Made by a program: the position numbers and the translations under genes. Source: a virus (taxonomy: Duplodnaviria > Heunggongvirae > Uroviricota > Caudoviricetes). From it: a stretch of DNA of 36,827 nt. The stretch is taken from the IMG/VR virus record IMGVR_UViG_2663763339_000003. The stretch is one strand, 5' to 3'. The notes under the pieces were generated by a model that saw only the letters and a list, made by a program, of their open reading frames with translations, ran no database searches and was not told the DNA's origin. This document shows positions 268-36,827 of the stretch, piece by piece; position 1 is the stretch's first letter, and each line of letters opens with the position of its first letter.

Positions 268-300
268 AAGCCCTCGCGTTGAGGGCTTTACTGATTTTTT
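268..300. terminator. putative bidirectional terminator between convergent grxA and ybjM
   Basis: inverted repeat aagccctc / gagggctt with 5-nt loop (268-288), T-run at 295-300. Confidence 0.35.
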
Positions 301-665
301 CTGTGCTGTGGTTTAAACAAACTACTGATAAATAAGAAACACAGTGCCCCCAGCGCACACCAGAACACCGCGCTTAGTAACCATGCCAGCTCTTGCCAGA
401 ATGAGCGCGTCGGTGAAAAAAACAGCCGCATAATGAGCATTGAACAGGGTGCCGCCAGCATTGCGCCAAATAGAGGTTTCAGGACTTCTCTACGCTGTGA
501 AAAGAAGCTGGCGACTGCTCCAGGAAGAATGAAAAATAGCAAGCCGATTTCAGGATGCCCGGCAGCCCGAAAAGCGCCTTTCATGTGCGTCGCCAGAAAA
601 AGGCACACCACAATGAAGAGGACAAAACAGCAGATTGCCCCCGCCCAACGTTGTTTATGTTTCAC
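288..665 (-). CDS. ybjM: inner membrane protein YbjM
   Basis: 125-aa ORF with several hydrophobic segments; position between grxA and ybjL matches the E. coli grxA-ybjM-ybjL neighbourhood. Confidence 0.75.
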   Translation of the reverse strand: MKHKQRWAGAICCFVLFIVVCLFLATHMKGAFRAAGHPEIGLLFFILPGAVASFFSQRREVLKPLFGAMLAAPCSMLIMRLFFSPTRSFWQELAWLLSAVFWCALGALCFLFISSLFKPQHRKNQ

Positions 666-934: not shown

Positions 935-2620
935 GTGAATATAAACGTCGCCGAATTGTTAAATGGGAATTACATTCTGTTATTATTTGTGGTCCTCGCG
1001 CTTGGGCTATGTCTCGGAAAGTTACGACTTGGTTCGATCCAACTGGGTAATTCCATTGGCGTTTTAGTCGTATCGCTGTTATTAGGCCAACAACATTTCA
1101 GCATTAACACCGATGCGCTTAATCTTGGCTTTATGCTGTTTATTTTCTGCGTCGGGGTCGAAGCCGGACCGAACTTTTTTTCCATTTTTTTTCGCGATGG
1201 GAAAAATTACCTAATGTTAGCACTGGTGATGGTTGGCAGTGCGCTGGTGATCGCCTTAGGGTTAGGTAAGCTGTTTGGCTGGGATATTGGCCTGACGGCC
1301 GGTATGTTAGCAGGCTCTATGACGTCGACACCGGTTCTGGTCGGTGCTGGCGATACACTGCGTCATTCCGGCATGGAAAGCAGGCAGCTCTCACTGGCAC
1401 TGGATAATCTGAGCCTCGGGTATGCCTTAACCTATTTAATCGGTCTGGTGAGTTTGATTGTTGGTGCGCGTTACTTGCCGAAATTGCAGCATCAGGACTT
1501 ACAGACCAGCGCCCAGCAAATCGCCCGCGAACGTGGCCTGGACACTGATGCCAACCGTAAGGTTTATTTACCGGTGATCCGCGCCTATCGCGTCGGCCCG
1601 GAGCTGGTGGCCTGGACCGACGGCAAAAATCTGCGTGAACTGGGTATTTATCGACAAACCGGCTGCTACATTGAACGTATTCGACGTAACGGGATTCTGG
1701 CAAATCCAGACGGTGATGCCGTGCTACAAATGGGCGATGAAATAGCGTTGGTAGGCTATCCCGACGCCCATGCCCGACTCGATCCCAGCTTCCGTAACGG
1801 TAAAGAAGTTTTCGATCGTGACCTTCTCGACATGCGTATCGTCACTGAAGAAGTGGTCGTTAAAAACCATAACGCTGTAGGTAAACGTCTCGCACAACTG
1901 AAGTTGACCGATCACGGTTGCTTCCTTAACCGCGTCATTCGTAGCCAGATTGAGATGCCGATAGATGACAACGTCGTGCTTAACAAAGGTGACGTTTTAC
2001 AAGTCAGCGGTGATGCCCGTCGCGTAAAAACCATCGCCGATCGCATCGGCTTTATCTCGATTCACAGCCAGGTCACTGACCTGCTGGCATTTTGCGCCTT
2101 CTTTGTTATTGGGCTGATGATCGGGATGATCACCTTCCAGTTCAGCACATTCAGTTTCGGCATGGGGAACGCTGCCGGGTTGTTATTCGCCGGAATTATG
2201 CTGGGCTTTATGCGTGCTAACCACCCGACCTTCGGTTACATTCCGCAAGGTGCATTAAGCATGGTGAAAGAGTTCGGCTTGATGGTGTTTATGGCAGGCG
2301 TTGGTCTGAGCGCCGGTAGCGGTATTAATAACGGCCTGGGCGCGATTGGCGGTCAGATGTTGATTGCCGGATTAATTGTCAGTCTTGTGCCCGTGGTTAT
2401 CTGTTTCTTGTTCGGTGCTTATGTATTGCGAATGAACCGCGCACTGTTGTTCGGCGCAATGATGGGCGCACGCACCTGCGCGCCGGCAATGGAGATCATC
2501 AGTGATACAGCTCGCAGTAACATCCCTGCGCTGGGCTATGCGGGCACCTACGCAATCGCCAACGTCCTGCTGACGCTGGCAGGGACAATCATCGTCATGG
2601 TATGGCCAGGATTAGGATAA
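935..2620 (+). CDS. ybjL: putative AAE-family transport protein YbjL
   Basis: 561-aa ORF with duplicated multi-helix membrane domains flanking a central soluble region; recognised as YbjL. Confidence 0.85.
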
Positions 2621-10144: not shown

Positions 10145-10711
10145 TCAGGGAGATTCATTGCTCTTATTTGCCGGAAATTTTCTATAAATGGTAGAAACGC
10201 CTACATCAAAAATCAGTGCAATACGCTGTCTTGATTCTCCGGCCTCGAGTAAACGCCCAATCTGTGCCCACTGTTCGGTGGTCAACTTAGGACGGCGTCC
10301 ACCTACTCTGCCTTTGGCACGAGCTGCAGCCAGCCCTGCCCTGGTACGTTCAACTATCAGTTCGCGTTCCATTTCAGCAAGGGCACCCATGACATGAAAA
10401 AAGAAACGGCCCATTGGGGTACTGGTATCAATACTGTCAGTCAGGCTTCGGAAATTCACGCCTCGCTGACGCAACTCTTCTATCAGCGTAACAAGATGCC
10501 GCATACTGCGCCCCAACCTGTCCAGCTTCCAGACAACCAGCGTGTCTCCTGCCGATAGTGTCCTGAGCAGTTTTTTCAACCCTGGTCTGTCGGACTTAGT
10601 GCCACTGATTTTATCCTCAAAAATCCGCTCACATCCCGCGCAGTTCAGTGCATTACGTTGCAAATCAGTGTTCTGGTCATTTGTTGACACGCGTACATAG
10701 CCAATAAGCAT
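10145..10711 (-). CDS. serine DNA invertase (Hin/Gin/Pin/Cin family)
   Basis: N-terminal MLIGYVRVSTNDQ with catalytic Ser, resolvase-type core and C-terminal HTH; start taken at the internal ATG (ORF track extends to 10828). Confidence 0.9.
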   Translation of the reverse strand: MLIGYVRVSTNDQNTDLQRNALNCAGCERIFEDKISGTKSDRPGLKKLLRTLSAGDTLVVWKLDRLGRSMRHLVTLIEELRQRGVNFRSLTDSIDTSTPMGRFFFHVMGALAEMERELIVERTRAGLAAARAKGRVGGRRPKLTTEQWAQIGRLLEAGESRQRIALIFDVGVSTIYRKFPANKSNESP

Positions 10712-10765
10712 GATCACCCCCCTGAATAAAAACCGGAGATGATGCCAGTTAGCCGTTATCTCTGC

Positions 10766-10791
10766 ATTTTCATAAACGTTGGTTTGGGAGA
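10766..10791. repeat. inversion crossover site (hix/gix-like), left
   Basis: TTTTCATAAACGTTGGTTTGGGAGAA fits the 26-bp TTnTCnnAAACCnnGGTTTnnGAnAA pattern; central TT at 10778-10779. Confidence 0.65.
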
Positions 10792-11146
10792 AGCGGCAAA
10801 ACGGAATGTAGGTAACGGGCAAAACCAAATTCCGGATATGGCGGCGTTTGCCAGTTCACTTTCATCAACGGGTTTTCAAAAACTACCTTCGGGTCTGATT
10901 ATTCAGTGGGGTATTGTCAGTGGAGCATCAAACTATACGGTGACTTACCCGGTAACATTCCCAAATCGTTCACTTGCGCTGTTGGCTGTACCACATACAA
11001 CGTCGGTGGCGGGTATATCTGCAATGGGCATAGCGAACTGTTCTGATATCAGCAAATCACAGTTCTATATAATTGTTGGCGGTATATCTCAGGGAGAAAT
11101 TGTCAAATATGAAAGGTCCTGTTTTTGGGTAGCAATCGGTGTATAG
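10779..11146 (+). CDS. alternative tail-fibre C-terminal cassette (silent orientation, promoterless)
   Basis: reading frame continues from the crossover site; LGEAAKRNVGNGQNQIPDMAAF is paralogous to [22 protein letters not shown] in the expressed tail fibre. Confidence 0.7.
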
Positions 11147-21801: not shown

Positions 21802-23568
21802 ATGAACACCACACTGACACCCGCAGATCTCGATCCCCGTCGGCAGGCCATGCTGCTGTACTTTCAGGGATACCGCGTCGCCCGCATTGCTGAAATGCTG
21901 GGCGAGAAAGTTGCAACCGTTCACAGCTGGAAAAAACGCGACAAGTGGGGTGACTATGGGCCGCTGGATCAGATGCAGCTCACCACCGCCGCACGCTACT
22001 GCCAGCTCATTATGAAGGAGCACAAAGAAGGGAAAGATTTCAAAGAAATTGACCTGCTGGCACGCCAGTCTGAGCGCCACGCGCGGATCGGCAAGTTTAA
22101 CAATGGCGGCAACGAAGCCGACTTAAACCCTAACGTTGCCAACCGCAACAAAGGCCCACGTCGTCAGCCGGAAAAGAATGTTTTCACCGATGAACAGATT
22201 GAGAAACTGGAAGAAATCTTCCATTCCTCCATGTTCAACTACCAGCGCCACTGGTGGGAAGCCGGAAAAACCAACCGCATCCGCAACCTGCTGAAGTCAC
22301 GCCAGATCGGCGCGACCTTTTACTTTGCCCGTGAAGCCCTGATTGACGCCCTGCTGACCGGGCGTAACCAGATTTTCCTTTCTGCCAGCAAGGCTCAGGC
22401 CCACGTCTTTAAACAGTACATCATCGACTTTGCCAAAGAAGTGGAGGTGGAGCTGAAAGGCGATCCGATGGTGCTTCCTAACGGGGCCACGCTTTACTTC
22501 CTCGGCACCAATGCCCGCACGGCCCAGAGTTACCACGGCAACCTGTATCTGGATGAATATTTCTGGATACCGAAATTCCAGGAGCTGCGCAAAGTGGCTT
22601 CCGGTATGGCTATTCACAAAAAATGGCGACAAACCTATTTTTCCACGCCATCCAGTCTGACACACAGTGCTTATCCGTTCTGGTCCGGTGCGCTGTTCAA
22701 CCGTGGGCGCAACAAAGCCGATAAGGTGGACATCGACCTGTCCCACAGCAATCTGGCCCCCGGCCTGCTGTGCGCAGACGGGCAATACCGCCAGATAGTC
22801 ACCGTGGAAGATGCGGTGCGCGGCGGCTGTAACCTGTTCGACCTCGACCAGCTACGCATGGAGTACAGCCCGGACGAATACCAGAACCTGCTGATGTGCG
22901 AGTTTGTGGACGATCTCGCGTCCGTGTTTCCGCTCAGCGAGCTGCAGGCGTGCATGGTGGACAGTTGGGAAGTCTGGACCGACTTTCATGCACTGGCGCT
23001 GCGCCCGTTTGGCTGGCGCGAAGTGTGGATCGGTTATGACCCGGCAAAAGGTACGCAAAACGGCGACAGCGCTGGATGCGTGGTGGTGGCACCGCCAGCC
23101 GTGCCGGGTGGTAAGTTCCGCATTCTTGAGCGTCACCAGTGGCGCGGGATGGACTTCCGCGCCCAGGCTGACGCCATCAAAAAACTTACCGAACAGTACA
23201 ACGTGACCTATATCGGTATCGACTCAACCGGCGTTGGTCACGGGGTTTACGAGAACGTGAAAGCGTTCTTTCCTGCCGTCCGGGAGTTTGTCTACAACCC
23301 CAACGTTAAAAACGCCCTGGTACTCAAGGCCTACGACATTATCAGCCACCGCCGTCTGGAGTTTGACGCCGGGCACACCGACATTGCGCAGTCATTCATG
23401 GCAATCCGTCGCGCAACCACCGCCAGTGGCAACCGCCCAACCTATGAAGCCAGCCGCAGCGAAGAAGCCAGCCACGCCGATCTGGCCTGGGCAACAATGC
23501 ACGCACTGTTTAACGAACCACTGCAGGGCGAGTCCGCCAATACCAGTAATATTGTGGAGATTTTTTGA
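21802..23568 (+). CDS. P: terminase ATPase (large) subunit P
   Basis: 588-aa ORF, P2 gpP size and position. Confidence 0.9.
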   Translation: MNTTLTPADLDPRRQAMLLYFQGYRVARIAEMLGEKVATVHSWKKRDKWGDYGPLDQMQLTTAARYCQLIMKEHKEGKDFKEIDLLARQSERHARIGKFNNGGNEADLNPNVANRNKGPRRQPEKNVFTDEQIEKLEEIFHSSMFNYQRHWWEAGKTNRIRNLLKSRQIGATFYFAREALIDALLTGRNQIFLSASKAQAHVFKQYIIDFAKEVEVELKGDPMVLPNGATLYFLGTNARTAQSYHGNLYLDEYFWIPKFQELRKVASGMAIHKKWRQTYFSTPSSLTHSAYPFWSGALFNRGRNKADKVDIDLSHSNLAPGLLCADGQYRQIVTVEDAVRGGCNLFDLDQLRMEYSPDEYQNLLMCEFVDDLASVFPLSELQACMVDSWEVWTDFHALALRPFGWREVWIGYDPAKGTQNGDSAGCVVVAPPAVPGGKFRILERHQWRGMDFRAQADAIKKLTEQYNVTYIGIDSTGVGHGVYENVKAFFPAVREFVYNPNVKNALVLKAYDIISHRRLEFDAGHTDIAQSFMAIRRATTASGNRPTYEASRSEEASHADLAWATMHALFNEPLQGESANTSNIVEIF

Positions 23569-24593
23569 TGGGAAAGAGTAAGAAGAACCGCGCTGCGTCG
23601 ACGAACCAGATCCAGCATAAAAGTCAAACTACAGCCGAAGCATTCAGCTTCGGTGATCCCGTTCCTGTTCTGGACCGCCGCGAACTACTGGACTATGTGG
23701 AATGCGTACAGACAGATCGCTGGTATGAGCCGCCAGTAAGCTTTGACGGACTGGCGCGCACCTTCCGCGCCGCCGTGCATCACAGTTCACCAATTGCGGT
23801 GAAATGCAACATTCTGACCAGTACCTACATCCCCCACCCGCTGCTCAGCCAGCAGGCTTTTTCACGTTTTGTGCAGGACTATCTGGTATTTGGTAACGCC
23901 TACCTGGAGAAACGCACGAACCGCTTCGGTGAAGTTATCGCCCTTGAGCCTGCTCTGGCAAAATACACCCGACGCGGGTTAGACCTGGATACCTACTGGT
24001 TTGTGCAATACGGTATGACAACCCAGCCGTATCAGTTCACGAAAGACAGCATTTTTCATCTGATGGAACCGGACATTAACCAGGAGATCTACGGCCTGCC
24101 CGGCTATCTTTCTGCCATTCCGTCCGCCCTGCTCAATGAGTCCGCCACGCTGTTCCGACGCAAATATTACATCAACGGCAGCCATGCAGGCTTCATCATG
24201 TATATGACCGATGCCGCGCAGAATCAGGAGGATGTGAACAATCTCCGCAACGCGATGAAAAGTGCCAAAGGTCCTGGTAACTTCCGCAACCTGTTTATGT
24301 ACTCGCCTAATGGCAAAAAAGACGGGCTTCAGATCATCCCGTTGTCAGAAGTCGCAGCGAAGGATGAATTTCTGAACATCAAGAACGTGAGCCGGGACGA
24401 TATGATGGCGGCGCATCGTGTACCGCCACAGATGATGGGGATTATGCCGAATAATGTTGGGGGATTTGGGGATGTGGAGAAATCGGCTAAAGTATTTGTG
24501 CGAAATGAGTTATTGCCGTTGCAAAAACGATTAATAGAAATTAACTCGTGGGTAAATATGGAAATTATAAAATATACCGCATACAAATTATAA
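23565..24593 (+). CDS. Q: portal protein Q
   Basis: 342-aa ORF with ATGA overlap to P; the last ~25 codons are encoded by AT-rich DNA. Confidence 0.85.
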   Translation: MMGKSKKNRAASTNQIQHKSQTTAEAFSFGDPVPVLDRRELLDYVECVQTDRWYEPPVSFDGLARTFRAAVHHSSPIAVKCNILTSTYIPHPLLSQQAFSRFVQDYLVFGNAYLEKRTNRFGEVIALEPALAKYTRRGLDLDTYWFVQYGMTTQPYQFTKDSIFHLMEPDINQEIYGLPGYLSAIPSALLNESATLFRRKYYINGSHAGFIMYMTDAAQNQEDVNNLRNAMKSAKGPGNFRNLFMYSPNGKKDGLQIIPLSEVAAKDEFLNIKNVSRDDMMAAHRVPPQMMGIMPNNVGGFGDVEKSAKVFVRNELLPLQKRLIEINSWVNMEIIKYTAYKL

Positions 24594-24641: not shown

Positions 24642-25514
24642 CTACCAATTCATGCTTTCTTTTAATTCAGTTCGCGCATTTTCAACAAGTTGTACTAACT
24701 CTTTAAGACTATCAGTTAACACTTGATGACTACCTTTATTTGTTCTATATGTTAACATATTTACATTTAATGTTTTTTCAATAACAGGAACCATATCTCT
24801 ATGAATACTTTTATCAGCCATAACCATATAATGTGGTTTAACAGCATTGTGCTTGAAAAAAGCATCTTCCAGAAGAAGCCTTATATCGGGGTCATTAGCC
24901 CCACAACCTATAAATAGAAATGTATGCGTTAAACCCAAGGCATTAAGAATCTCGTAAAAATCTCTGTACTGTGATCTTGCCTTTGCATAATCACTTCTTG
25001 AAAAAATCAAGTTTGACGTATTATCAATTGTGCCGTGAATTTTCAGGATAACACGACCACTATCCTTTATTGCACTTGCAATATCACTATCAAAATAATT
25101 TTTGACACTTACCGTGCCTTCTGTTTCTTTACTAACATATGTTTCATATATTTTATCAAAATTAGGCGTTACAACAATCCTGCAATCTAATTTAAAAAGA
25201 AACTCATGTATATCTGCTTTAGCATAATGTGGATTCAAGAATGCATTTTTTGCAATTTCATCGAACCTCCCTTTAGGAAGCTTTGCCTTAATTAATTCAC
25301 AAGCAGTCAAATAATCTTCGTTTTTAATCAATCGTTTAATTTGTAGCGATGACCCAGAACTGAGTTCTGGTAAACATCCTTCAAGAAATTGTTTCCAACT
25401 TGGAGGCCGTGAATTACCTTTACCAACACTGTTCATTGAGACGCCTGCCCCCAGAAATAAAATACATTTCCGTCTCGCTAAATCGGAGACTAAGCTTTTA
25501 TCCCAATTAATCAT
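24642..25514 (-). CDS. SIR2-like (SIR2_2-type) NAD-binding protein, putative NADase effector
   Basis: 290 aa; N-terminal LFLGAGVS glycine-rich Rossmann motif, VVTPNFD (cf. TTNYD) and KIHGT motifs; ATGA overlap with the upstream ATPase gene. Confidence 0.7.
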   Translation of the reverse strand: MINWDKSLVSDLARRKCILFLGAGVSMNSVGKGNSRPPSWKQFLEGCLPELSSGSSLQIKRLIKNEDYLTACELIKAKLPKGRFDEIAKNAFLNPHYAKADIHEFLFKLDCRIVVTPNFDKIYETYVSKETEGTVSVKNYFDSDIASAIKDSGRVILKIHGTIDNTSNLIFSRSDYAKARSQYRDFYEILNALGLTHTFLFIGCGANDPDIRLLLEDAFFKHNAVKPHYMVMADKSIHRDMVPVIEKTLNVNMLTYRTNKGSHQVLTDSLKELVQLVENARTELKESMNW

Positions 25515-26518
25515 GACTCACTCGCAGCAACATTATCAAGGATACGGGAACAAATACTTTCAAAAAGCTTCTTAGCATCGTTTACTTTTGAAAAGTGCGA
25601 TCCTACTACCCCATCTTTATTTTTAAGATTAAAAATTGGAGCATTTGCTAATTGAGACAATGGAATTAAGCTATTCATATTCTCAATTTGCCCTAAATCA
25701 AAATTCATATCTTGTTTTTTTGCGTAATTATTGATTATTTCTGCTTTCATTGCCTTAGGAATTTTAAGTGCAATTTTTTCATACGCATTAACTTTTACTT
25801 TCTCTCCCCTTACTGTTTTCCCTTTATATTGTTGCATCGCATACCCAAGAAACTTCAGTCTGCACTGTAAAGATGAGCCATCGATGATAAAATCTTCACC
25901 TTCATTTTTAGTATAGTTTTTCAGGCCATCAGATACACCTTCCATCCAGGCCTTTAGCGAAAGGTTAATATTATTAAGAGCTAAAAGACTAAACATATCA
26001 ACAGACATTGGAATAATGAAATAGTCACATGATATTATTATTGCTCTATTCAATGCACCTAATGAAGGACCTACATCATATAAAATAAAATCATAGTCTT
26101 TATACATGGAGGACAGATGTGAAAAAACAAATGTTGTTTGTATACCTCGAGGTTTCCCTGCCACAGCGGGGTCCCAATCAGATGCTAAAAAATCCTCACT
26201 CAACGCTAACTTGGGATCCCCAGGAATCAAGTCAAAACCAAACCTATCAGTTTTTATTGGAACTACACGAGTAGTTGCATATCCTTTTGCCCTCCGAACT
26301 GGGGTTAAGAAATTTTCAATTGTATTTCTCTTATCAGAACCATAAAGTTCATCAAGTTTTTTCTCTCCCAAACAATAAGATGTTGTGTTGCACTGAGGAT
26401 CGGCGTCAATAACCAACACTTTTTTGTGCATCTCAAGACTAAGATAAGCACCAACATTACACAACAATGTAGTTTTGCCAACGCCACCTTTATTATTGAA
26501 AAAAACTATACTGTTCAT
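25511..26518 (-). CDS. ParA/MinD-family P-loop ATPase with C-terminal extension
   Basis: 335 aa; deviant Walker A NNKGGVGKTT at residues 8-17 and an Asp-rich Walker B-like region (VLVIDADPQ). Confidence 0.8.
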   Translation of the reverse strand: MNSIVFFNNKGGVGKTTLLCNVGAYLSLEMHKKVLVIDADPQCNTTSYCLGEKKLDELYGSDKRNTIENFLTPVRRAKGYATTRVVPIKTDRFGFDLIPGDPKLALSEDFLASDWDPAVAGKPRGIQTTFVFSHLSSMYKDYDFILYDVGPSLGALNRAIIISCDYFIIPMSVDMFSLLALNNINLSLKAWMEGVSDGLKNYTKNEGEDFIIDGSSLQCRLKFLGYAMQQYKGKTVRGEKVKVNAYEKIALKIPKAMKAEIINNYAKKQDMNFDLGQIENMNSLIPLSQLANAPIFNLKNKDGVVGSHFSKVNDAKKLFESICSRILDNVAASES

Positions 26519-26557
26519 CTATAACATTGCTCATTTTATCACTCAAATTTCCTGAGA

Positions 26558-26587
26558 TTTATACATAAGATTAATCGCAATGTCCAA
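26558..26587 (-). promoter_or_regulatory. candidate sigma70 promoter for the ParA-SIR2 operon
   Basis: minus-strand TTGGAC - 18 nt - TATAAA about 40-70 nt upstream of the ParA-like ATG. Confidence 0.3.
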
Positions 26588-26664
26588 TCAGCTTTAACAT
26601 TAATTAACACCTCTTTTAAGATTAAAATTTTGTTAAGAAATGCACTCTAGCCCCATGGCGCGCG

Positions 26665-26683
26665 CTCGTATCCCCGCCACGCC
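26665..26683 (-). other. cos-like site (cohesive end region)
   Basis: minus-strand GGCGTGGCGGGGA... resembles the start of P2/186 cohesive ends as I recall them; GC-rich island in AT-rich surroundings. Confidence 0.4.
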
Positions 26684-26723
26684 TGCCCGCTTTATGTAGT
26701 GGTTTTCATGCAGGTGCATGATC

Positions 26724-26755
26724 TACGCAAAAGCCCGCCAGAACTGGCGGGCCTT
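26724..26755 (-). terminator. rho-independent terminator downstream of the lipoprotein gene
   Basis: minus-strand hairpin gcccgccag-ttc-tggcgggc followed by TTTTG. Confidence 0.55.
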
Positions 26756-26856
26756 AACACAAAAGATCCTCAAACGATCATGCGATCTCATGCAGCATAG
26801 ACATGCGCGTTTATGCAGAATGTGCAAAATCGTAACATACTCAGTAAGCGTGAAAC

Positions 26857-27534
26857 CTAGAACGTGACAGCCTTGTCAAAGCCAGAAATAATTGTATAAG
26901 AAATAGACGAGTTATCAGCCTTGTTCACTTTGAACTTGGCACCTTTGTAAGCGATAACATCACTTCCCTTAGAATCTACAGAAAAATCTGTTGTAAATGC
27001 TGCACGAGCCATATCGTTTGCAAATTCACGATAGGTGAACTTCATTACACCGCCTGCATTTCCATTGTATTCGATAGTCTTAACCAATGAATTACTCACT
27101 CGACACAGCCCATCAGGAACACGTTTGATAGAAATTTCTGATGCAGTATAAGAAGTGCCATTTGGCGGTGATATCTCATTTTTTGCAGCATCGTAACTAA
27201 CATAATCAACATAGTTACCGATTTGCCCATAGAGATTTTTTAACGCAACAGCTTGAGGGTTATGATAATTGCGGTAAATTCCATTCCCCTCACTGCAATA
27301 TGTACCAGCAGCGATAGAAGACAATGCACCATTAGCCGCACCAAGTTCTAGTACGTCCGTTTTAAATCCAGTAGCAGATGTGATAATGGGATCGCCCATG
27401 TAGGCGGTAGCACTTTGCCCAATAGCTGGCTTCACCACTTCAATAGCAGTGATATTTCGGTTAGAAGCATGTGGCACGCAACCAGTTAGGATTACAGCAA
27501 GAGATATTGGTAACGCTACATTATTAATTTTCAT
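26857..27534 (-). CDS. lipoprotein of unknown function (cargo gene)
   Basis: start at MKINNVALPISLAVILTGC with lipobox LTGC (ORF track extends to 27588); AT-rich. Confidence 0.65.
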   Translation of the reverse strand: MKINNVALPISLAVILTGCVPHASNRNITAIEVVKPAIGQSATAYMGDPIITSATGFKTDVLELGAANGALSSIAAGTYCSEGNGIYRNYHNPQAVALKNLYGQIGNYVDYVSYDAAKNEISPPNGTSYTASEISIKRVPDGLCRVSNSLVKTIEYNGNAGGVMKFTYREFANDMARAAFTTDFSVDSKGSDVIAYKGAKFKVNKADNSSISYTIISGFDKAVTF

Positions 27535-27558
27535 TTTTAGCCTATTATTCTTTTCTTG

Positions 27559-27593
27559 ACAAAAAACAAGGCGATATCTGATTGACATCGCCT
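27559..27593 (-). terminator. rho-independent terminator downstream of the DinI-like gene
   Basis: minus-strand hairpin ggcgatgtcaatcagatatcgcc followed by TTGTTTTTTG. Confidence 0.5.
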
Positions 27594-27647: not shown

Positions 27648-27881
27648 TCAATGCAGCCAGCTGTCGTCTTCCCACACCTTCTGCAAAATTTTCATCACTT
27701 GTTTTCTTTCTTCGTCCAGTTGCAGTCCGGTCAGTTCCACACCGTTAGAGCTACCTTTACGGATACGGATTACCGTTTTGGGATACAGGGGGCGCAGATT
27801 GCGGTAAAGCTCGGATTCAAGGGCGTCCAGGGTAGACTGGCTAATCTTCTGCTCTTTATCGATCATTATTTCAATGCGCAT
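27648..27881 (-). CDS. DinI-family protein
   Basis: MRIEIMIDKEQKISQSTLDALESEL...QKVWEDDSWLH resembles DinI; start taken at the internal Met (ORF track extends to 27953). Confidence 0.7.
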   Translation of the reverse strand: MRIEIMIDKEQKISQSTLDALESELYRNLRPLYPKTVIRIRKGSSNGVELTGLQLDEERKQVMKILQKVWEDDSWLH

Positions 27882-27891
27882 AAAAGTCACC

Positions 27892-28080
27892 TCAACTGAT
27901 GACATCCATTGAGCGGTTGTATTCGTGGGTTCTGATTTTTGCCATGAGTTCATCAGTCAATTCAGAAACCCACTGCAGAGCCAGCCCCTTCTCTTCATCA
28001 CTACACTCACTAGCCGCTACAAGCTTAAGAAAAAAATCAATGCGCTGGAGCTTCAAAGACTCCAAAAAATAGTCCTGCAT
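27892..28080 (-). CDS. small hypothetical protein, first gene of the LexA-box transcript (possible Tum-like antirepressor)
   Basis: GGAGG ribosome-binding site 5 nt upstream of ATG at 28080; LexA box just upstream. Confidence 0.45.
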   Translation of the reverse strand: MQDYFLESLKLQRIDFFLKLVAASECSDEEKGLALQWVSELTDELMAKIRTHEYNRSMDVIS

Positions 28081-28232: not shown

Positions 28233-30647
28233 TTAATACAGGTTCCGCCACTTATCATCTTCCTTCAGACGCTGGTTCCGATAGAAGATACGCAAGCCTG
28301 CTCCTGACGGAATACTGCCGCCGCGAAGGAGTAAATCGACCTCTTTCTCGCTGCCATCAAATCCTCTGGACTTCAGTTCATAGACGAGCTGCTGTCGTTG
28401 ATGGTCTGTAATTCGCTGTTTGTAGTCTCTACGCCGTTTCGGTTTAACCAGACGTAACCTTGCAGCCAGTTCCCGGCGCTCTTTTTTGTTCATACTGTGC
28501 AGGTAATCGTGCAACTCCTTGTCATCCATGCAGGTAATATCCGTTCTGGTGTCCCCATCAGCTGATTTATCTTTCTCCTGTTGGTTCAAATTTTCAGCAA
28601 GGGGACAGTTATTGCCACGAGTCCAAGGGGCGCAAGCGCCCTGGTCGGCTGCCGCCTCCTGAACGTCAACGGCCTTACGAACCATTTTCCACTTCACCGC
28701 ATGAGTGCAGATCTTGCCCTCTGCAATGGGTGACCAGATGCCATAAATACGAATGCCGTGATCGCCATAGGCGGTCGGCTCTTCGTTAATTTCATAAGCA
28801 GTTCTGATGAGGTGATATTTGCGGGGAACCAGTACGCCGCCCTGCTTCATGATGTAAGTGGCAAAACAACCAGCATCAGCAGCAGCCAGGATTGCATCAA
28901 GGCGCGGGTTATCCAGTACCGGCGCACCTGCTTTTTTGTCCCCCTGTTGCCTTGCCGCCTGACCAGCCAGCAATCGCAGTTCACGGTAAGCCTGACGCCC
29001 CGGAATGCCAAAGAAGCGGAATTGCTGAACACGATGCAAAGACGCCCAGGCATTCACGTATTCAGCGTTATCACGCAGAGATTTACCCGTTTCCTTGCTG
29101 ATCTCGCCAGCCAGACCACGCCCGTCAATGTTCTTGCTGATATATTTCGCGATGTAGCTTGTCGGCGTTCCTTTGCGCGGGTTAATCAACTCAGACTTAA
29201 ATCGTGGTCCCGTGTTATTCCCCAGCTCCTCGCGGTCTTCACGAATGGCAAACTTACGCAATAAAGCAGTAATGGCGCGGCGATCTTTTTTGCGCATAAA
29301 ACACAACAGGTGCCAGTGAACTGTACCGTCATGATGCGGCTCAGCCACCCGCACGCCATACCAGCGCAATCCGGCTTTGTGCATCGCCTTACGAAATGCA
29401 GCAAACATGCCGACCAGATAATCACTGCTTTGTCTTACCGTTGCATTTGTCCAGGTCGGGTTGGGCCTGCCGTTATTTAGCGTGGAATGGAAACGTGACG
29501 GACAGGTGATGGTGTAGAAAACGGCGCAGTCACCGCGCATTTCCGCGATAAGCTCCAGGCCTTTAACACAGGCCATCATCTCATTGCGGCGATGCGCAGG
29601 GTTGCTGCTGCTGGCGTTTACCACATCCTCCATGTCCAGCGTATCGCCGTCTTCGTTCACCAGTTCATGAGAACGAAAAAACTCCAGCGACTTACGGCGC
29701 TGCTCACGTTTATGCATCACGGCTTCATAGCTGACATAAGGAGATGCTTTTTTGCTAACCAGGCAGACAGCGCGCAACTGCTCTTCCCGCCATTCGCAAC
29801 GCATCTTCCATAATTTCCGATACCACCAGTCGGCGCACAACATACGCGCCAGCGAACCCGGAATGAGTTCATAGGGCACGGGTTTACGGCGGTTTCTTTT
29901 CCGGCGGAGTTGCTCAAACGCAGGAGGAATGACACCCAGACGCAGGGTTTCCGCCGCCACCCTTTCCCATGTCTTGCGGATTTCTTCTGGCTTAACGTCA
30001 TCGGTGGCATACAAATCGCCACAAGCTGCATCAAGACACATGCTCATATGCGCAGCAACAAGGGTGGACAGGCGTTTCACCTGATCCTGACTCATTTCAG
30101 GCAGGATCAGCAGGCCGTCCAGCCCTTCATGGCTTGCCATAAAGCGAAAAGAAGTGGATAGCTGACAGTCGCGTACATGCTCCAGTCGTTCCAGACATGG
30201 CTTAATCGTCTCACGCAAATAGCGGGAATAAGCCTTTGGCCTGCCCAGGCTGCTGAAGTATTCGATACGTTGCATCAGCGGCTTGCTGATATGGGAAGGC
30301 TGGGCATTGACGTCCGCCAGAATGACCATATCTGGATTAAAACGCTGCTGCTCATGCGCCAGCTTTGCCCGGCTAATGAGCTTATCCTGCTCCATTTCGC
30401 GTTGGACAGGATCACGGGATTCATTAAAGAAATAACGCTCCCAGACCTGATCACTTAGTGCCTCGCGACGCAGTTGTTCCTGCTCATTATCGACAGCGTA
30501 CAGAGTGATCAGGTTTGAAAGCGCAGAAACCGGCGCAACTTCCGCCAGGTCCAGATAAGGGTTAATGGCCTTTTTCGGGCTGTTCCATGAGAATGCTGCG
30601 GCGACCTCGTTAAAGCCGCTGCAGTTGTTCATATCATCATGGCTCAT
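28233..30647 (-). CDS. A: replication initiation endonuclease A (rolling-circle type)
   Basis: 804-aa ORF recognised as P2 gpA-like. Confidence 0.9.
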
Positions 30648-33397: not shown

Positions 33398-33994
33398 ATG
33401 TCAACATCAAAGTACCCAAGTGAGATCAAAATAAATCCCAATAAAGGTGGTAAGGCTGCGATTGAGCGATTAGTCGAAGCTTATGGCTTTACGACACGAC
33501 AGGCTTTAGCTGATCACTTGGAAGTATCAAAAAGCACTCTGGCGAACAGGTATTTGCGGGATACGTTTCCTGCAGACTGGATAATCCAATGTGCTCTTGA
33601 AACAGGAACCTCACTGAAATGGTTAACCACCGGGCAAGGACTTAAGCAAAGCTCGCTGACAGTAGCCACAGAAGAGCTTCCCAAGTTTCGCCTTACCGCA
33701 GGCAAAATGATTGAAGATGGTTCATATGTATTCGATTCATCATTTCTTCCTGCAAATCTTTCATCACCAATTGTTATTCAGGATGGGCTTGTCACATACA
33801 TTTGTGATCAAAAATTTTCTGAAGTACTTGATGGACACTGGTTAATCAACATCGACGGAACCTATTCCATTCGAAAAATCACAAAGCTTCCAAAAGGTAT
33901 GATTAAAATTACAACTACAGAGAATAGCTTTGAATGTGCATTTTCTGATATTGAAGTGGTTGCTTGTATAAGAAGTACAATAGTTTCAAATTGA
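33398..33994 (+). CDS. cI: CI immunity repressor (186-type)
   Basis: 198-aa ORF; N-terminal HTH region resembles 186 CI (AYGF...LANRY...CALETG); divergent from apl. Confidence 0.8.
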   Translation: MSTSKYPSEIKINPNKGGKAAIERLVEAYGFTTRQALADHLEVSKSTLANRYLRDTFPADWIIQCALETGTSLKWLTTGQGLKQSSLTVATEELPKFRLTAGKMIEDGSYVFDSSFLPANLSSPIVIQDGLVTYICDQKFSEVLDGHWLINIDGTYSIRKITKLPKGMIKITTTENSFECAFSDIEVVACIRSTIVSN

Positions 33995-34014
33995 TATAGT
34001 AAAAGGATTTAAAA

Positions 34015-35691
34015 ATGAATTCATTTTCCATCGTTATATTCTTATTAGCATTTCTCGCCCCTGTTCTAGCTATAATATTATTTAAGCAAAGTAAAGAACA
34101 CAAAGCCGCCATAGATAACCTGACGGCTAACAACATAGCCCTTTCCAGCCAACTGAGTGAAAATCAAGAAAAGTTAGCACAGACTGCTCGAGATCTATCA
34201 GAGCTTGAAGGGCGAGCAGCACCATTATGGCAATACGAAGAATTGCACAGCGCAGTGATGGAGGCAGAGAATAAGATAAAAAATGCAGACTCAATAGCTA
34301 GGCAAAAAATAGAAGAAGCCCAAATAAAGGCAGCTAAGACAGTAAACGAAGCAAGTTATCAAGCTCAGATAACAATAAGCAACGCTAATAGCGAAGCTAT
34401 AGCAATCACCAAAGACGCTCGCGATGCACGCCTGAAAGCCAAAGAACGTCTTGATAATGCCAACAGTAAAGCAAATGAGCTGATCTCAAATGCTAATGAC
34501 AACGCAGTAAAAATTATTTCCGATGCAGAAGAAAGAGCAAAAGAGATTGCTGGTTCAGCATATGAAGCTAAAGAGTTTGCAGAAAAATATGAAGCAGTTG
34601 CCAAATCAATGAAAAATAAAATTGAAGGTTATGGCGATGAATGGATCATCCCTAACCGTAGTGTACTTGATGAATTGGCAGAAAATTATGAGTTTACAGA
34701 TGCAGGCAAGGAATTACAAAAAGCCAGGGAGTTAACAAAATCATTAATAAAAACTAATAAAGCAGCTTCGTGTGATTATGTTGAGCAAAACAGGCGTAAT
34801 ACTGCTATCAACTTTGTTTTGGATGCCTTCAATGGAAGAGTTGACAGTATTTTATCAAAAGTCAAACACAACAATTTTGGAAAACTTTCCCAAGAAATAA
34901 AAGATGCATTTCAACTTGTAAATTATAATGGCTCTGCTTTTAGATCCGCAAAAATAAGTGACATCTATCTTCAGGCACGACTCAACGAGCTAAAATGGGG
35001 AGTTGCAGTTAATGAAATTATGCTCGAAGAAAAAGAGGAGCAAAGAAGGATTAAAGAACAACTTCGTGAAGAGGAAAGAGCTCGTAGAGAGTATGAAAAA
35101 GCGATAAAAGAAGCCGAAAAAGAAGAGAAAGCTATTCAGCAAGCTATAAATAAAGCAACGAAAGAGCTTATGCTTGCAAATGAAGAACAACGCTTAGCTT
35201 TAGAGCAAAAAATAGCTGAACTACAGTTAAAATATGAAGAAGCTGAAGCTAAAAACCAACGAGCTATTTCTATGGCTCAACAAACTAGATCAGGCCATGT
35301 TTATATAATTAGCAATATTGGCTCATTTGGCGAAGATGTATATAAAATTGGAATGACACGCCGCCTTGAACCACTTGATCGTGTTCGTGAACTTGGGGAT
35401 GCTAGTGTTCCTTTTTCGTTCGATGTTCATGCGATGATTTATAGTGATGATGCACCGTCATTAGAAAATCATCTGCATAAAGTCTTCAACGAAAAGCAGG
35501 TCAATAAAATTAACTCACGAAAAGAGTTTTTTAACGTAAATATTAAAGAAATTAAATCGGTTATTGAAGATATGAACATCAATGCCCACTGGACAATGTT
35601 TGCAGAGGCGAAAGAATATAGAGAGTCACTAGCTATTGAGCAGGAACGCAAAGCAGCCACTTCCGCCAACGATGAACTACATGTTGCTTAG
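34015..35691 (+). CDS. membrane-anchored coiled-coil protein with C-terminal T5orf172 (GIY-YIG-like) domain, cargo gene
   Basis: 558 aa; N-terminal TM helix (FSIVIFLLAFLAPVLAIILF), Ala/Glu/Lys-rich coiled coil, C-terminal GHVYIISN...YKIGMTRRLEPLDRVREL motif block; 20 nt after the cI stop. Confidence 0.55.
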   Translation: MNSFSIVIFLLAFLAPVLAIILFKQSKEHKAAIDNLTANNIALSSQLSENQEKLAQTARDLSELEGRAAPLWQYEELHSAVMEAENKIKNADSIARQKIEEAQIKAAKTVNEASYQAQITISNANSEAIAITKDARDARLKAKERLDNANSKANELISNANDNAVKIISDAEERAKEIAGSAYEAKEFAEKYEAVAKSMKNKIEGYGDEWIIPNRSVLDELAENYEFTDAGKELQKARELTKSLIKTNKAASCDYVEQNRRNTAINFVLDAFNGRVDSILSKVKHNNFGKLSQEIKDAFQLVNYNGSAFRSAKISDIYLQARLNELKWGVAVNEIMLEEKEEQRRIKEQLREEERARREYEKAIKEAEKEEKAIQQAINKATKELMLANEEQRLALEQKIAELQLKYEEAEAKNQRAISMAQQTRSGHVYIISNIGSFGEDVYKIGMTRRLEPLDRVRELGDASVPFSFDVHAMIYSDDAPSLENHLHKVFNEKQVNKINSRKEFFNVNIKEIKSVIEDMNINAHWTMFAEAKEYRESLAIEQERKAATSANDELHVA

Positions 35692-35749
35692 CAATGTATG
35701 TTTCATAGCAATCACACATTGATTACTGGTTGTATATACAGTTAAATTT

Positions 35750-35774
35750 AGCCCTCTGATATGAGGGCTTTTTT
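35750..35774 (+). terminator. rho-independent terminator between the cargo gene and int
   Basis: agccctc-tgatat-gagggct followed by ttttt, ending at the int ATG. Confidence 0.55.
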
Positions 35775-36827
35775 ATGGCAGTACGAAAACTCACCACAGG
35801 AAAATGGCTTTGCGAATGTTACCCCGCCGGACGTAGTGGACGTCGTGTGCGTAAACAATTCGCCACCAAAGGCGAAGCACTGGCTTTTGAGCGTCACACG
35901 ATGGAAGAAACCGAAGCAAAGCCCTGGCTAGGTGAATCAGTGGATCGTCGAACACTGAAAGACGTGGTTGAGCTATGGTTCAAACTACATGGTAAATCAC
36001 TGACAGCTGGGCAGCATGTCTATGACAAATTGCTGCTGATGGTTGACGCTCTGGGCAATCCCCTTGCAACTGATCTAACCTCTAAAATGTTTGCCCACTA
36101 TCGAGATAAACGCCTGACAGGTGAGATCTACTTCAGCGAGAAATGGAAGAAAGGAGCAAGCCCGGTCACCATTAACCTGGAGCAAAGCTATCTAAGTAGT
36201 GTTTTTAGCGAACTATCCCGCCTGGGCGAATGGTCGTATCCGAACCCACTGGAGAACATGCGAAAATTCACCATCGCAGAAAAAGAGATGGCATGGCTTA
36301 CCCATGAGCAGATTGTTGAATTACTGGCTGATTGCAAACGTCAGGACCCAATTCTGGCACTGGTAGTTAAGATATGCTTAAGCACAGGCGCACGCTGGCG
36401 AGAAGCCGTAAATCTTACTCGTTCACAGGTGACCAAATACCGAATTACCTTTGTAAGAACGAAGGGGAAGAAAAACAGAAGCATCCCTATCAGTAAAGAG
36501 CTTTACGAAGAGATCATGGCGCTTGATGGGTTCAATTTCTTCACAGACTGCTATTTTCAATTTTTATCCGTGATGGAAAAAACGTCTATCGTGCTCCCTC
36601 GCGGTCAACTCACACACGTTCTGCGCCATACGTTTGCGGCACACTTCATGATGTCGGGTGGAAACATTCTGGCCTTACAAAAAATTCTCGGACACCACGA
36701 TATAAAAATGACTATGCGTTACGCACATCTGGCACCGGATCATCTGGAAACGGCGCTCCGTTTCAATCCTCTGGCAACGCTGCCAAGTGGCGACAAAGTG
36801 GCGGCAGCGGTTGGCATTACCCCGTAA
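35775..36827 (+). CDS. int: tyrosine integrase (P2/186 family)
   Basis: 350-aa ORF with C-terminal R...HxxR...Y catalytic motif region (VLRHTFAAHF...MTMRYAHL); the att core repeat lies in the last codons. Confidence 0.9.
   Translation: MAVRKLTTGKWLCECYPAGRSGRRVRKQFATKGEALAFERHTMEETEAKPWLGESVDRRTLKDVVELWFKLHGKSLTAGQHVYDKLLLMVDALGNPLATDLTSKMFAHYRDKRLTGEIYFSEKWKKGASPVTINLEQSYLSSVFSELSRLGEWSYPNPLENMRKFTIAEKEMAWLTHEQIVELLADCKRQDPILALVVKICLSTGARWREAVNLTRSQVTKYRITFVRTKGKKNRSIPISKELYEEIMALDGFNFFTDCYFQFLSVMEKTSIVLPRGQLTHVLRHTFAAHFMMSGGNILALQKILGHHDIKMTMRYAHLAPDHLETALRFNPLATLPSGDKVAAAVGITP
36788..36809. repeat. att core copy (int-proximal prophage junction)
   Basis: tggcgacaaagtggcggcagcg, 21/22 identical to 2834-2855. 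Confidence 0.6.

Follow-up and report, generated by a model that had tools for sequence, protein, structure and literature searches.

PD-λ-1 came out of a functional screen for phage defence (Vassallo et al. 2022, PMC9519451). [quoted passage not shown] 2026, PMC13190303). In the latter study, the E414A substitution and deletion of DUF4041 each caused loss of defence, deletion of the transmembrane (TM) helix made the protein toxic through cleavage of the chromosome, and DUF4041 bound both DNA and tape measure proteins, the tape measure protein also being the site of escape mutations. SNIPE restricts siphoviruses, not myoviruses or podoviruses, leaves prophage induction unaffected and, unlike the Abi control PD-λ-3, allows the cells that express it to survive infection at high multiplicity. 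It associates with ManYZ, and the association is assigned to the N-terminal region (model, Fig. 5g), a region that is highly variable across the family, carries a TM helix in 59-66% of the published homologues and is proposed to set phage specificity through its variability (all PMC13190303).

Here we describe a cargo gene of a P2/186-like prophage, the product of which very probably belongs to the SNIPE (PD-λ-1) family. The window, by which we mean the whole stretch of DNA analysed (36,827 nt), holds on its plus strand the gene of a 186-type CI immunity repressor (198 aa; 33398..33994; Pfam Phage_CI_repr 8.4e-32, Phage_CI_C 2.5e-27), a spacer of 20 nt between the cI stop and the next start, as read directly from the sequence (33995..34014), an ATG-initiated ORF of 558 aa (34015..35691), an 83-nt element (35692..35774) and a tyrosine integrase gene (350 aa; 35775..36827; Pfam Int_N 3e-32, Phage_integrase 7e-22). 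A Shine-Dalgarno sequence, AAAGGA, lies at 34002-34007, 7 nt 5' of the ATG of the ORF. A first-pass annotation, made from the sequence, had reported the 558-aa ORF on the same strand as cI and 20 nt past its stop, and had called its DNA AT-rich relative to the phage backbone; the ORF call and the sequence confirm the former, and base composition bears out the latter, the GC content being 0.376 in the gene (GC3 0.283) versus 0.482 in int and 0.517 in the remainder of the prophage. A random reading frame is excluded by the length of the ORF (1677 nt in DNA of 38% GC) and by its matches to family profiles, with E-values from 1e-120 to 1e-132.

Phage 186 lacks any such cargo slot; its cI and int genes adjoin directly, and the annotation assigns both to a single lysogenic operon under the control of pL and pE. 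The reference SNIPE gene is likewise prophage-borne; its carrier is a lambdoid prophage, in which it has a promoter of its own and is read from the opposite strand, with ren on one side and the nin region on the other, whereas the gene described here sits inside the apparent cI-int operon of a P2/186-like myovirus, with cI as the putative first gene. Scanning the plus strand from the cI start to the start of the ORF, we found no promoter-like or terminator-like site, although a weak internal promoter would escape such a scan, and the same 20-nt cI-ORF spacing recurs at the orthologue loci of Klebsiella and Salmonella prophages. From this layout (same strand, spacing and absent consensus signals) we infer that the gene is co-transcribed with cI. 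The scan did not locate pL with confidence; the sole site to pass was a convergent pR-like one on the minus strand (TTGACA-N17-TAGTAT, 33404-33376).

The family assignment rests on several profiles. The PADLOC PD-Lambda-1 model PDLC03976 matched the 558-aa protein over nearly its full length (E=7.3e-120, 399 bits; aa 107-550 of the protein, positions 37-481 of the 491 in the model), PDLC03977 scored 387 bits and phrog_1847 matched with 3.8e-132; for comparison, the reference SNIPE of Escherichia coli ECOR26 (PD-λ-1; PhiR26_1 XSB42081.1 = RCP76574.1) scored 658 and 647 bits on the two PADLOC models, about 1e-198. Aligned directly by BLASTP, the two proteins share 49% identity across aa 265-555 (293 columns, E=1e-76), and a 99.9%-identical E. 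coli copy bears the RefSeq name “SNIPE associated domain-containing protein.” Every residue conserved at ≥90% in 132 diverse homologues is present. Conservation across the homologues falls from the nuclease (0.67) through DUF4041 (0.50) to the N-terminus (0.19), reproducing the gradient published for the SNIPE family (PMC13190303). The order of parts is also that of SNIPE: TM anchor, long helical region, DUF4041 (SNIPE) domain, long helix and GIY-YIG nuclease. The 558-aa protein thus displays every feature by which membership of the SNIPE / PD-λ-1 family, taken in the broad sense, can be tested from sequence. Its accession was not found in the supplementary files of the SNIPE paper that we examined (PMC13190303).

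The C-terminal block had been recognized in the first-pass annotation as a T5orf172/MUG113 GIY-YIG-like domain, and an HMM search for T5orf172 and DUF4041 had been suggested as a check; the search found both. T5orf172 covers aa 427-520 (codons 35293..35574, plus strand; 62.5 bits, 5.9e-17) and MUG113 covers aa 443-520 (70.7 bits, 1.6e-19), each above the curated Pfam cut-off. In the pairwise BLASTP alignment E484 (codon 35464-35466) falls opposite the catalytic E414 of SNIPE, and it is among the residues that are invariant in 100 diverse sequences (Y430, G436, G439, G446, T448, R449, R450, E459, E484 and N497), so that the protein has the GIY-YIG domain of the SNIPE family together with its predicted catalytic glutamate. 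A PDB search with the protein sequence returned nothing at E ≤ 1. An AlphaFold2 (AF2) model built on a diverse alignment of 100 sequences (pLDDT 84), which replaced an earlier run on 20 sequences of 81-97% identity in which the globular domains were unresolved (pLDDT 54), shows an elongated architecture ending in a nuclease domain of β-β-α-β-α topology. The top high-probability Foldseek matches to this model were the Slx1 GIY-YIG structures 4xm5, 7cq2 and 7cq4 (probability 0.89-0.98), with weak E-values (0.06-0.12) because the long helices dominate the query. The catalytic core is common to Slx1 and other GIY-YIG nucleases, but the 558-aa protein has neither the RING nor the Slx4-binding module of Slx1, and by analogy with SNIPE its specificity would come from membrane location and DUF4041 rather than from DNA structure, in contrast to Slx1.

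The core of DUF4041 was located by Pfam PF13250, which appears as “SNIPE” in the current precomputed Pfam matches, at aa 267-322 (codons 34813..34980, plus strand; 46.6 bits with the cut-off at 27, E=3.1e-12). In the AF2 model it belongs to a confidently folded region at ~217-306 (pLDDT 84-95), and the DUF4041 region carries eight K+R against five D+E. The protein therefore has the central DUF4041 of the family, both by profile and by fold. This region lies between long helices at 3-203 and 316-425, so the ~400-aa coiled coil described in the first-pass annotation stands as to the long helices and falls as to their forming a single stretch. Such helices also bear on the names under which identical or similar proteins have been deposited, an SMC-like “chromosome segregation ATPase” in the phage records KP12 and vB_EcoM-813R9 and V-ATPase subunit H in a JGI record. 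These names echo NCBIfam matches to DivIVA/Wag31 (24.5 bits, where the cut-off is 260), to SMC and to V-ATPase subunit E, but all of these lie far below their cut-offs and fall in the Ala/Glu/Lys-rich helices, whereas the specific domain matches are DUF4041 and GIY-YIG. No Walker A motif is present in the 558-aa protein, and the Pfam search returned no ATPase family. We consider the chance that the protein is such an ATPase negligible; the lack of any NTPase motif or domain refutes it (the SMC match itself reaches 15.5 bits, where the cut-off is 729), and the sub-threshold coiled-coil matches (DivIVA, SMC and V-ATPase E) explain the misleading names. Correction of the “chromosome segregation ATPase” label in the deposited phage records is of modest practical value.

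The N-terminal TM helix that had been proposed for the protein was also upheld. It is predicted at aa 4-23 (SIVIFLLAFLAPVLAIILF; codons 34024..34083, plus strand), the 19-residue hydrophobic peak, starting at residue 4 or 5, has a mean Kyte-Doolittle hydropathy of 2.99, lysines (K24, K27 and K30) flank the segment on its C-terminal side, and the segment is helical in the AF2 model. The reference SNIPE peaks in hydrophobicity at the corresponding position (3.37, starting at residue 6), and a comparable segment occurs within the first 120 residues of 114 of the 132 homologues, so the membrane-targeting element of the family is present here. The remainder of the N-terminal half tells a different subtype apart. 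BLASTP gave no significant alignment between aa 1-264 and aa 1-195 of SNIPE, the PADLOC match begins only at aa 107, and the protein is 58 residues longer than the 500-aa ECOR26 SNIPE. Such divergence agrees with the variability reported for this part of the family (PMC13190303). For lack of N-terminal homology to the ECOR26 protein, we class the 558-aa protein as a family member of another subtype and not as an orthologue; SNIPE sensu stricto, with an ECOR26-homologous, ManYZ-associated N-terminus, does not include it. Because aa 1-264 do not align with SNIPE, neither ManYZ association nor activity against λ can be assumed, and, as far as the sequences indicate, the membrane partner and the phage range probably differ from those of SNIPE. 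Residues W257, E223 and K305 of SNIPE, mutation of which changed tape-measure specificity, correspond to K327, S292 and Q375. The N-terminal module of TM helix and ~200-residue helix is itself conserved from enterobacterial prophages to homologues in a cyanophage and a Marinitoga virus. This subtype could reveal whether the variable N-terminus sets phage specificity.

By analogy with the ECOR26 protein, we infer an inner-membrane nuclease that acts on injected DNA and gives non-abortive defence. The bulk of the protein would be cytoplasmic, with the membrane tether keeping the nuclease off the chromosome; on genome injection, mainly by a siphovirus, DUF4041 would engage the tape measure protein together with the incoming DNA, which the nuclease would then cut, leaving the cell alive. 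Judging from the gene layout, transcription with cI from the lysogenic promoter would make the protection of lysogens constitutive. Harm to the carrier phage itself is not expected, given that SNIPE leaves the DNA of resident prophages alone and that the myoviruses tested against it went unrestricted. The earlier suggestion of a defence gene, possibly a membrane-tethered nuclease, is thus supported, insofar as the analogy holds, by the family features and by the defence-rich slot in which the gene lies, although the biology of the SNIPE family is already published and the defence-gene finding is not new; its interest is that such a gene was correctly recognized from the sequence alone.

The accompanying suggestion of an exclusion or abortive-infection function holds as far as defence is concerned but not for the abortive part, since SNIPE gives direct defence with cell survival. 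Genes placed in repressor operons do include classic Abi systems. A rex-like toxin, freed or activated on infection so that the nuclease destroys host and phage DNA and the cell dies to protect the population, would accord with the cleavage of the chromosome by SNIPE lacking its TM helix, a toxic activity that marks the nuclease as not sequence-specific. SNIPE-expressing cells, however, survive high multiplicity where PD-λ-3 cells do not, and the 558-aa protein retains the DUF4041-linker-nuclease unit in full (49% identical) as well as the TM anchor; we therefore give the abortive reading a small chance. To a protein that belongs to the SNIPE family but serves the phage, through superinfection exclusion of related P2-like competitors for the host and the attachment site, we assign a slight one. 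The gene adjoins an immunity gene and is linked to one immunity type, SNIPE acts at DNA entry as classical exclusion proteins do, and the divergent N-terminus leaves room for such a role, but P2-like phages are myoviruses, no tested myovirus was restricted by SNIPE, and the prophage here itself has sheath-type tail genes and a tape measure protein of 1025 aa. Direct, non-abortive defence of the lysogen, mainly against siphoviruses, is the reading that we retain.

Accessory genes that protect lysogens are a familiar property of temperate phages, and λ rexAB, sieB and P2 old, tin and fun would be the counterparts of the gene described here; a difference is that RexAB and Old come into play once the DNA is inside, several such systems being abortive, whereas proteins of the SNIPE type intervene as the DNA enters and let the cell live. 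An Old homologue occupies the very same cI-int slot in sister prophages. Using the integrase as an anchor, we surveyed 80 IMG/VR loci whose integrase is ≥99% identical and found at least 15 cargo (gap) classes, with gaps of 395-2621 nt and cargos that all lie on the plus strand with a GC content of 0.30-0.37. They include matches to Old (9e-235), PDC-S20 (KAP-NTPase; 2e-171 and 7e-78), PDC-M18A and M18B, PDC-M11A (1e-133) and M11B (2e-49), and an AriA-like AAA_15 ATPase; several classes had no match. The cI-cargo-int layout is also found in Klebsiella and Salmonella prophages. With differing cargos between the same conserved flanks and an enrichment in recognized defence genes, the cI-int slot is a defence hotspot, and hotspots of this kind are already in the literature: those of P2-like phages are likewise variable, AT-rich, defence-enriched and set between conserved phage genes (Rousset et al. 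2022, PMC9122126; NAR 2026, PMC13586616), and of the P2 defence systems in the 2026 survey, 8% map to the integrase-primase interval (PMC13586616). The two best-known E. coli P2 hotspots lie elsewhere, at gpA-gpQ (old/tin) and Z/fun, and the present slot differs from the known ones in belonging to the enterobacterial 186-type lineage, in its 83-nt right border and in co-varying with the cI allele. The cI-int junction of this lineage is thus a compact slot for defence cassettes, and its uncharacterized cargos, among them proteins of 488 aa, about 325 aa (at two loci) and 354 aa and a 349+201 aa pair in 4LV2017, could be mined for new systems.

The borders of the slot bear on one further explanation, that the gene is a selfish, free-standing GIY-YIG homing endonuclease which invaded the cI-int junction by cutting cargo-less alleles and brings the lysogen no benefit. 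GIY-YIG and T5orf172 domains are known in free-standing phage endonucleases, and the gene is AT-rich with sharp borders, homology to relatives with other cargos resuming at 35692-35713 (95-98% identity), 1-22 nt past the cargo stop. Homing endonucleases, however, lack both the TM anchor and DUF4041, and the gene does not range over many cI alleles: in all 13 SNIPE-type loci the cI allele is 96-100% identical to the present one, compared with 44-73% in the other cargo classes. Moreover, the alternative alleles of the slot are occupied by different defence genes instead of offering a vacant target, and the family was recovered through functional selection for phage defence. A homing endonuclease has in our view only a very slight chance of being correct, and we keep to the SNIPE-family defence gene.

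The 83-nt element (35692..35774, plus strand), recognized by homology across the classes and by folding, bounds the cargo slot on its right, where the border is fixed, and stands before int in every one of the 15 cargo classes, the near-empty class included. Within it lie an imperfect inverted repeat (ATGTATG...CACACAT), the promoter-like motif TTGATT (35719-35724)-N17-TTAAAT (35742-35747) and a hairpin (35750-35769) with a 7-bp stem, five pairs of which are G-C, followed by TTTTT (35770-35774) and then by the int ATG at 35775; the Shine-Dalgarno sequence of int, GAGGG, lies in the 3' arm of the hairpin. The terminator reported to end at the int ATG is therefore present as a hairpin and T-run, labelled terminator-like by our scan, but it is not specific to this cargo. 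Three versions of the stem occur with pairing kept, and single-sequence folding gave the hairpin in 15 of 15 classes, with ΔG values of -12 to -18 kcal/mol. RNAalifold did not recover it from the 15 elements, because MAFFT mis-registered the stem versions. A 99-nt region here folds with z = -2.2.

The hairpin and T-run probably end the cI-cargo transcript. If the element is an insulator, it would stop transcripts that run on from cI and the cargo and would mask the int ribosome-binding site, while a promoter starting inside the 5' arm of the hairpin would yield a translatable int mRNA. We tentatively combine this insulator with a protein whose own N-terminal module docks at an inner-membrane injection conduit other than ManYZ and so has a distinct phage range (possibly non-siphoviruses), a combination that we regard as possible but rather doubtful. 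The 558-aa subtype is carried by about 3% of complete E. coli genomes (165/5426).

The 558-aa open reading frame (ORF) between the repressor and integrase genes (34015..35691, + strand, ATG start) encodes a member of the known, mechanistically characterised SNIPE (PD-λ-1) defence family. Its ATG lies 20 nt past the cI stop codon, with an AAAGGA ribosome-binding site 7 nt before it; the 186-type CI repressor is encoded at 33398..33994 (+; Phage_CI_repr, 8e-32; Phage_CI_C, 2.5e-27), with a CII/CP76 homologue (Pfam) upstream in divergent orientation, and the tyrosine integrase gene, int, follows at 35775..36827 (+). The first-pass annotation had placed the ORF here, 20 nt after cI and before int, and had described it as AT rich relative to the phage, with an N-terminal transmembrane helix and a T5orf172 domain, all of which held. 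The gene has a GC content of 0.376 (GC3, 0.283), against 0.482 for int and 0.517 for the remaining prophage; the only strongly hydrophobic segment of the protein, residues 4-23 (mean Kyte-Doolittle score, 2.99), is followed by three lysines; and HMM searches exceeded the curated Pfam thresholds for DUF4041 (residues 267-322) as well as for T5orf172 and MUG113 (residues 427-520). The family is not new, the protein being already labelled SNIPE-type by PADLOC, Pfam and RefSeq: PADLOC matched PD-Lambda-1 near full length (residues 107-550, E=7.3e-120), PF13250 carries the name SNIPE in current Pfam, and the E. coli copy with 99.9% identity (WP_025649891.1) is entered in RefSeq as "SNIPE associated domain-containing protein". 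In PHROGs, phrog_1847 was matched (3.8e-132). Membership of this family supports the earlier interpretation of a defence gene, possibly for a membrane-tethered nuclease.

PD-λ-1 came from a functional selection as the 500-aa protein RCP76574.1 of E. coli ECOR26, with DUF4041 at residues 197-252 and T5orf172 at 357-448 (PMC9519451). As the reference SNIPE gene we used the one annotated PD-lambda-1 in phage PhiR26_1 (L002:3071-4573), whose length and domain coordinates agree with the publication. By BLASTP, residues 265-555 of the window protein were 49% identical to SNIPE residues 196-487 (E=1e-76), and E484 paired with SNIPE E414, the residue at which an E414A substitution abolishes defence (PMC13190303); residues 1-264 gave no alignment to the reference. 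An exhaustive profile search at E ≤ 1e-30 returned 1,405 clusters (50% identity), and many of these align over residues about 5 to 548, so the architecture of the window protein is a widespread subtype in itself. Homologues 53-55% identical and spanning most of the protein were found by tblastn in Synechococcus phages and Marinitoga viruses.

We aligned 132 diverse sequences, SNIPE among them, and found that the window protein keeps every position that is at least 90% conserved: Y430, G436, G439, K444, G446, T448, R449, R450, E459, D470, H472, E484, H488, N497, N500, E504 and F505-506. Mean conservation fell from the nuclease (0.67) through DUF4041 (0.50) to the N-terminus (0.19), and this pattern matches that published for 474 SNIPE homologues (PMC13190303). 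A hydrophobic 19-mer was present within the first 120 residues in 114 of the 132 sequences. An AF2 model built from 100 diverse sequences (mean pLDDT, 84) consists of a helix (residues 3-203), the folded DUF4041 region (217-306), a second helix (316-425) and a β-β-α-β-α domain (427-490) with more elements out to residue 519; its high-probability Foldseek matches were the GIY-YIG nuclease Slx1 (4xm5, 7cq2 and 7cq4; probability, 0.89-0.98; E, 0.06-0.12).

Some database names for this gene are misleading. GenBank phage records with an identical or 97%-identical gene, OM835953.1 (Klebsiella phage KP12) and ON470620.1 (Escherichia phage vB_EcoM-813R9), call it a "chromosome segregation ATPase", a name with no basis other than coiled-coil composition, and the "V-ATPase subunit H" or "vacuolar-type H+-ATPase subunit H" of JGI records is likewise a coiled-coil artefact. 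The 558-aa sequence has no NTPase motif and no Walker A motif.

ECOR26 SNIPE resides in the inner membrane, with its N-terminus in the periplasm and its body in the cytoplasm, and associates both with ManYZ and with the λ tape measure protein; when its transmembrane segment is deleted it binds the nucleoid via DUF4041 and the chromosome is cut (PMC13190303). In the BASEL set it restricted most siphoviruses and no myoviruses or podoviruses, and gain-of-function mutations map to DUF4041 and phage escape mutations to the tape measure protein (PMC13190303). By homology, the window protein would act as SNIPE does from DUF4041 onward. The role of the SNIPE N-terminus, however, is not transferable to the unrelated N-terminus of the window protein, and the specificity-changing SNIPE positions W257, E223 and K305 correspond in the BLASTP alignment to K327, S292 and Q375. 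The target range of the window protein therefore probably differs from that of SNIPE.

The interval between cI and int is a variable cargo slot, an already described kind of prophage hotspot: Rousset et al. noted a hotspot between cI and int among P2 relatives of the Vibrio K139 type (PMC9122126), and the integrase-primase interval holds 8% of P2 defence systems in a 2026 survey (PMC13586616). Phage 186, unlike the lineage of the window, has no such slot; there cI and int share one base and are annotated as a single lysogenic operon from pL and pE. Among 80 IMG/VR loci chosen for an integrase at least 99% identical, the cI-int distance fell into 15 classes (395-2621 nt), with every cargo on the + strand at a GC content of 0.30-0.37. 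Thirteen of the 80 loci carried a SNIPE-type gene, each with a cI 96-100% identical to that of the window; other cargos were an Old homologue (9e-235), KAP-NTPase PDC-S20, PDC-M18A/B, PDC-M11A/B and an AriA-like ATPase. Homology between classes is lost within or just past the cI N-terminal domain and returns 1-22 nt beyond the stop codon of the cargo, so the exchanged unit is a cI allele together with its cargo.

Several cargos had no PADLOC or Pfam assignment and are candidates for new defence genes: a 488-aa protein (L036:5445-6911), two coiled-coil and transmembrane proteins of ~325 aa (L079:4172-5161 and L043:5945-6919), a multi-transmembrane pair of 349 and 201 aa in Klebsiella phage 4LV2017 (L001:2268-3924; L067 has a variant with 42% identity) and a 354-aa protein encoded upstream of PDC-M11A (L072:4408-5472), with L078:4718-5500 as a further unassigned cargo. 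The commonest state, a 395-nt gap found in 41 of 80 loci, is nearly empty and still encodes a 63-aa protein (L005:6621-6812) whose N-terminus resembles a signal peptide and whose C-terminus is rich in Cys (MLGKVFFVVLSCSLLLNPLTTYARNYPCSGKKGG...); no family match was found for this protein. Its ORF also persists in L033 and L060, ahead of their KAP-NTPase cargos. The window CI has 198 aa; 4LV2017 encodes a CI of ~310 aa (L001:1324-2265), as do L011, L019, L040, L043 and L078 in similar form. With the motif GGKAAIERI..AYG..RQA...RY.RD.FPADW present twice, the longer CI seems to contain two tandem copies of the N-terminal helix-turn-helix module.

Common to all cargo classes is a conserved 83-nt element directly before int (35692-35774, +), shared with L001, L005, L011, L033, L034, L036, L040, L043, L060, L067, L072, L075, L078 and L079. 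It comprises an inverted repeat (ATGTATG...CATACAT), a promoter-like TTGAC(A/C)-N17-T(A/T)AAAT around a palindrome, ACTG..CAGT, that does not vary, and a hairpin (35750-35769; 7 bp, 5 of them G-C) followed by a T-run up to the int ATG, where the first-pass annotation had placed a terminator. The stem occurs in three versions that keep pairing (AGCCCTC/GAGGGCT, ATGCTCTCC/GGAGGGCAT and AGTCCTC/GAGGACT), and the int Shine-Dalgarno sequence lies within its 3' arm. Mis-registration of the alignment kept RNAalifold from finding the hairpin, and we claim no statistical covariation. We infer that the hairpin would end or occlude read-through of a presumed cI-cargo transcript. A separate start site for int may lie within the 5' arm, and the element as a whole could combine a terminator or insulator with an int promoter or operator.

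Host genes ybjM (288..665, -) and a ybjL-type Asp-Al_Ex/TrkA_C transporter gene (935..2620, +) occupy the left end of the window, and rcdA and ybjJ come after the identical prophage end in strain E7-1N7; the prophage is therefore a P2/186-like element of an E. coli-type chromosome, sitting between ybjL and rcdA. Over this region it is 99.8% identical to Klebsiella phage KP12. Near full-length copies of the 558-aa gene occur in 165 of 5426 complete E. coli genomes (about 3%), and Klebsiella and Salmonella prophages carry orthologues 82-85% identical in the same layout of cI, 20-nt gap, gene and int. Compared with sister prophages, about 245 nt are missing from the window at ~32367, beside a DUF5347 gene. 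The E7-1N7 prophage is nearly identical to that of the window (99.9% over the 558-aa gene), and there the fil gene adjacent to this site is a frameshifted pseudogene according to RefSeq (L003:4316-4517).

A second AT-rich island (24642-27588, -; GC, 0.33-0.41), flanked on one side by the portal gene (23565..24593) and on the other by replication endonuclease A (28233..30647), occupies the position of the old/tin hotspot that is classic for P2. Its products are a 290-aa SIR2_2 protein, for which PADLOC gave partial ThsA/LmuA-like matches, a 335-aa ATPase of the ParA/MinD-like AAA_31 type and a 243-aa protein for which no match was found. PADLOC recognised no named system in the island, which is possibly a SIR2-based defence module of an uncharacterised kind. 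Close to this hotspot lies a gene for a DinI-like protein (27648-27953, -); the Tum anti-repressor of phage 186 belongs to this family. Elsewhere, a Gin/Hin-type serine invertase gene (10145-10828, -) adjoins the tail-fibre region (10.5-12 kb), which is AT rich; this arrangement hints at a host-range segment that can be inverted.
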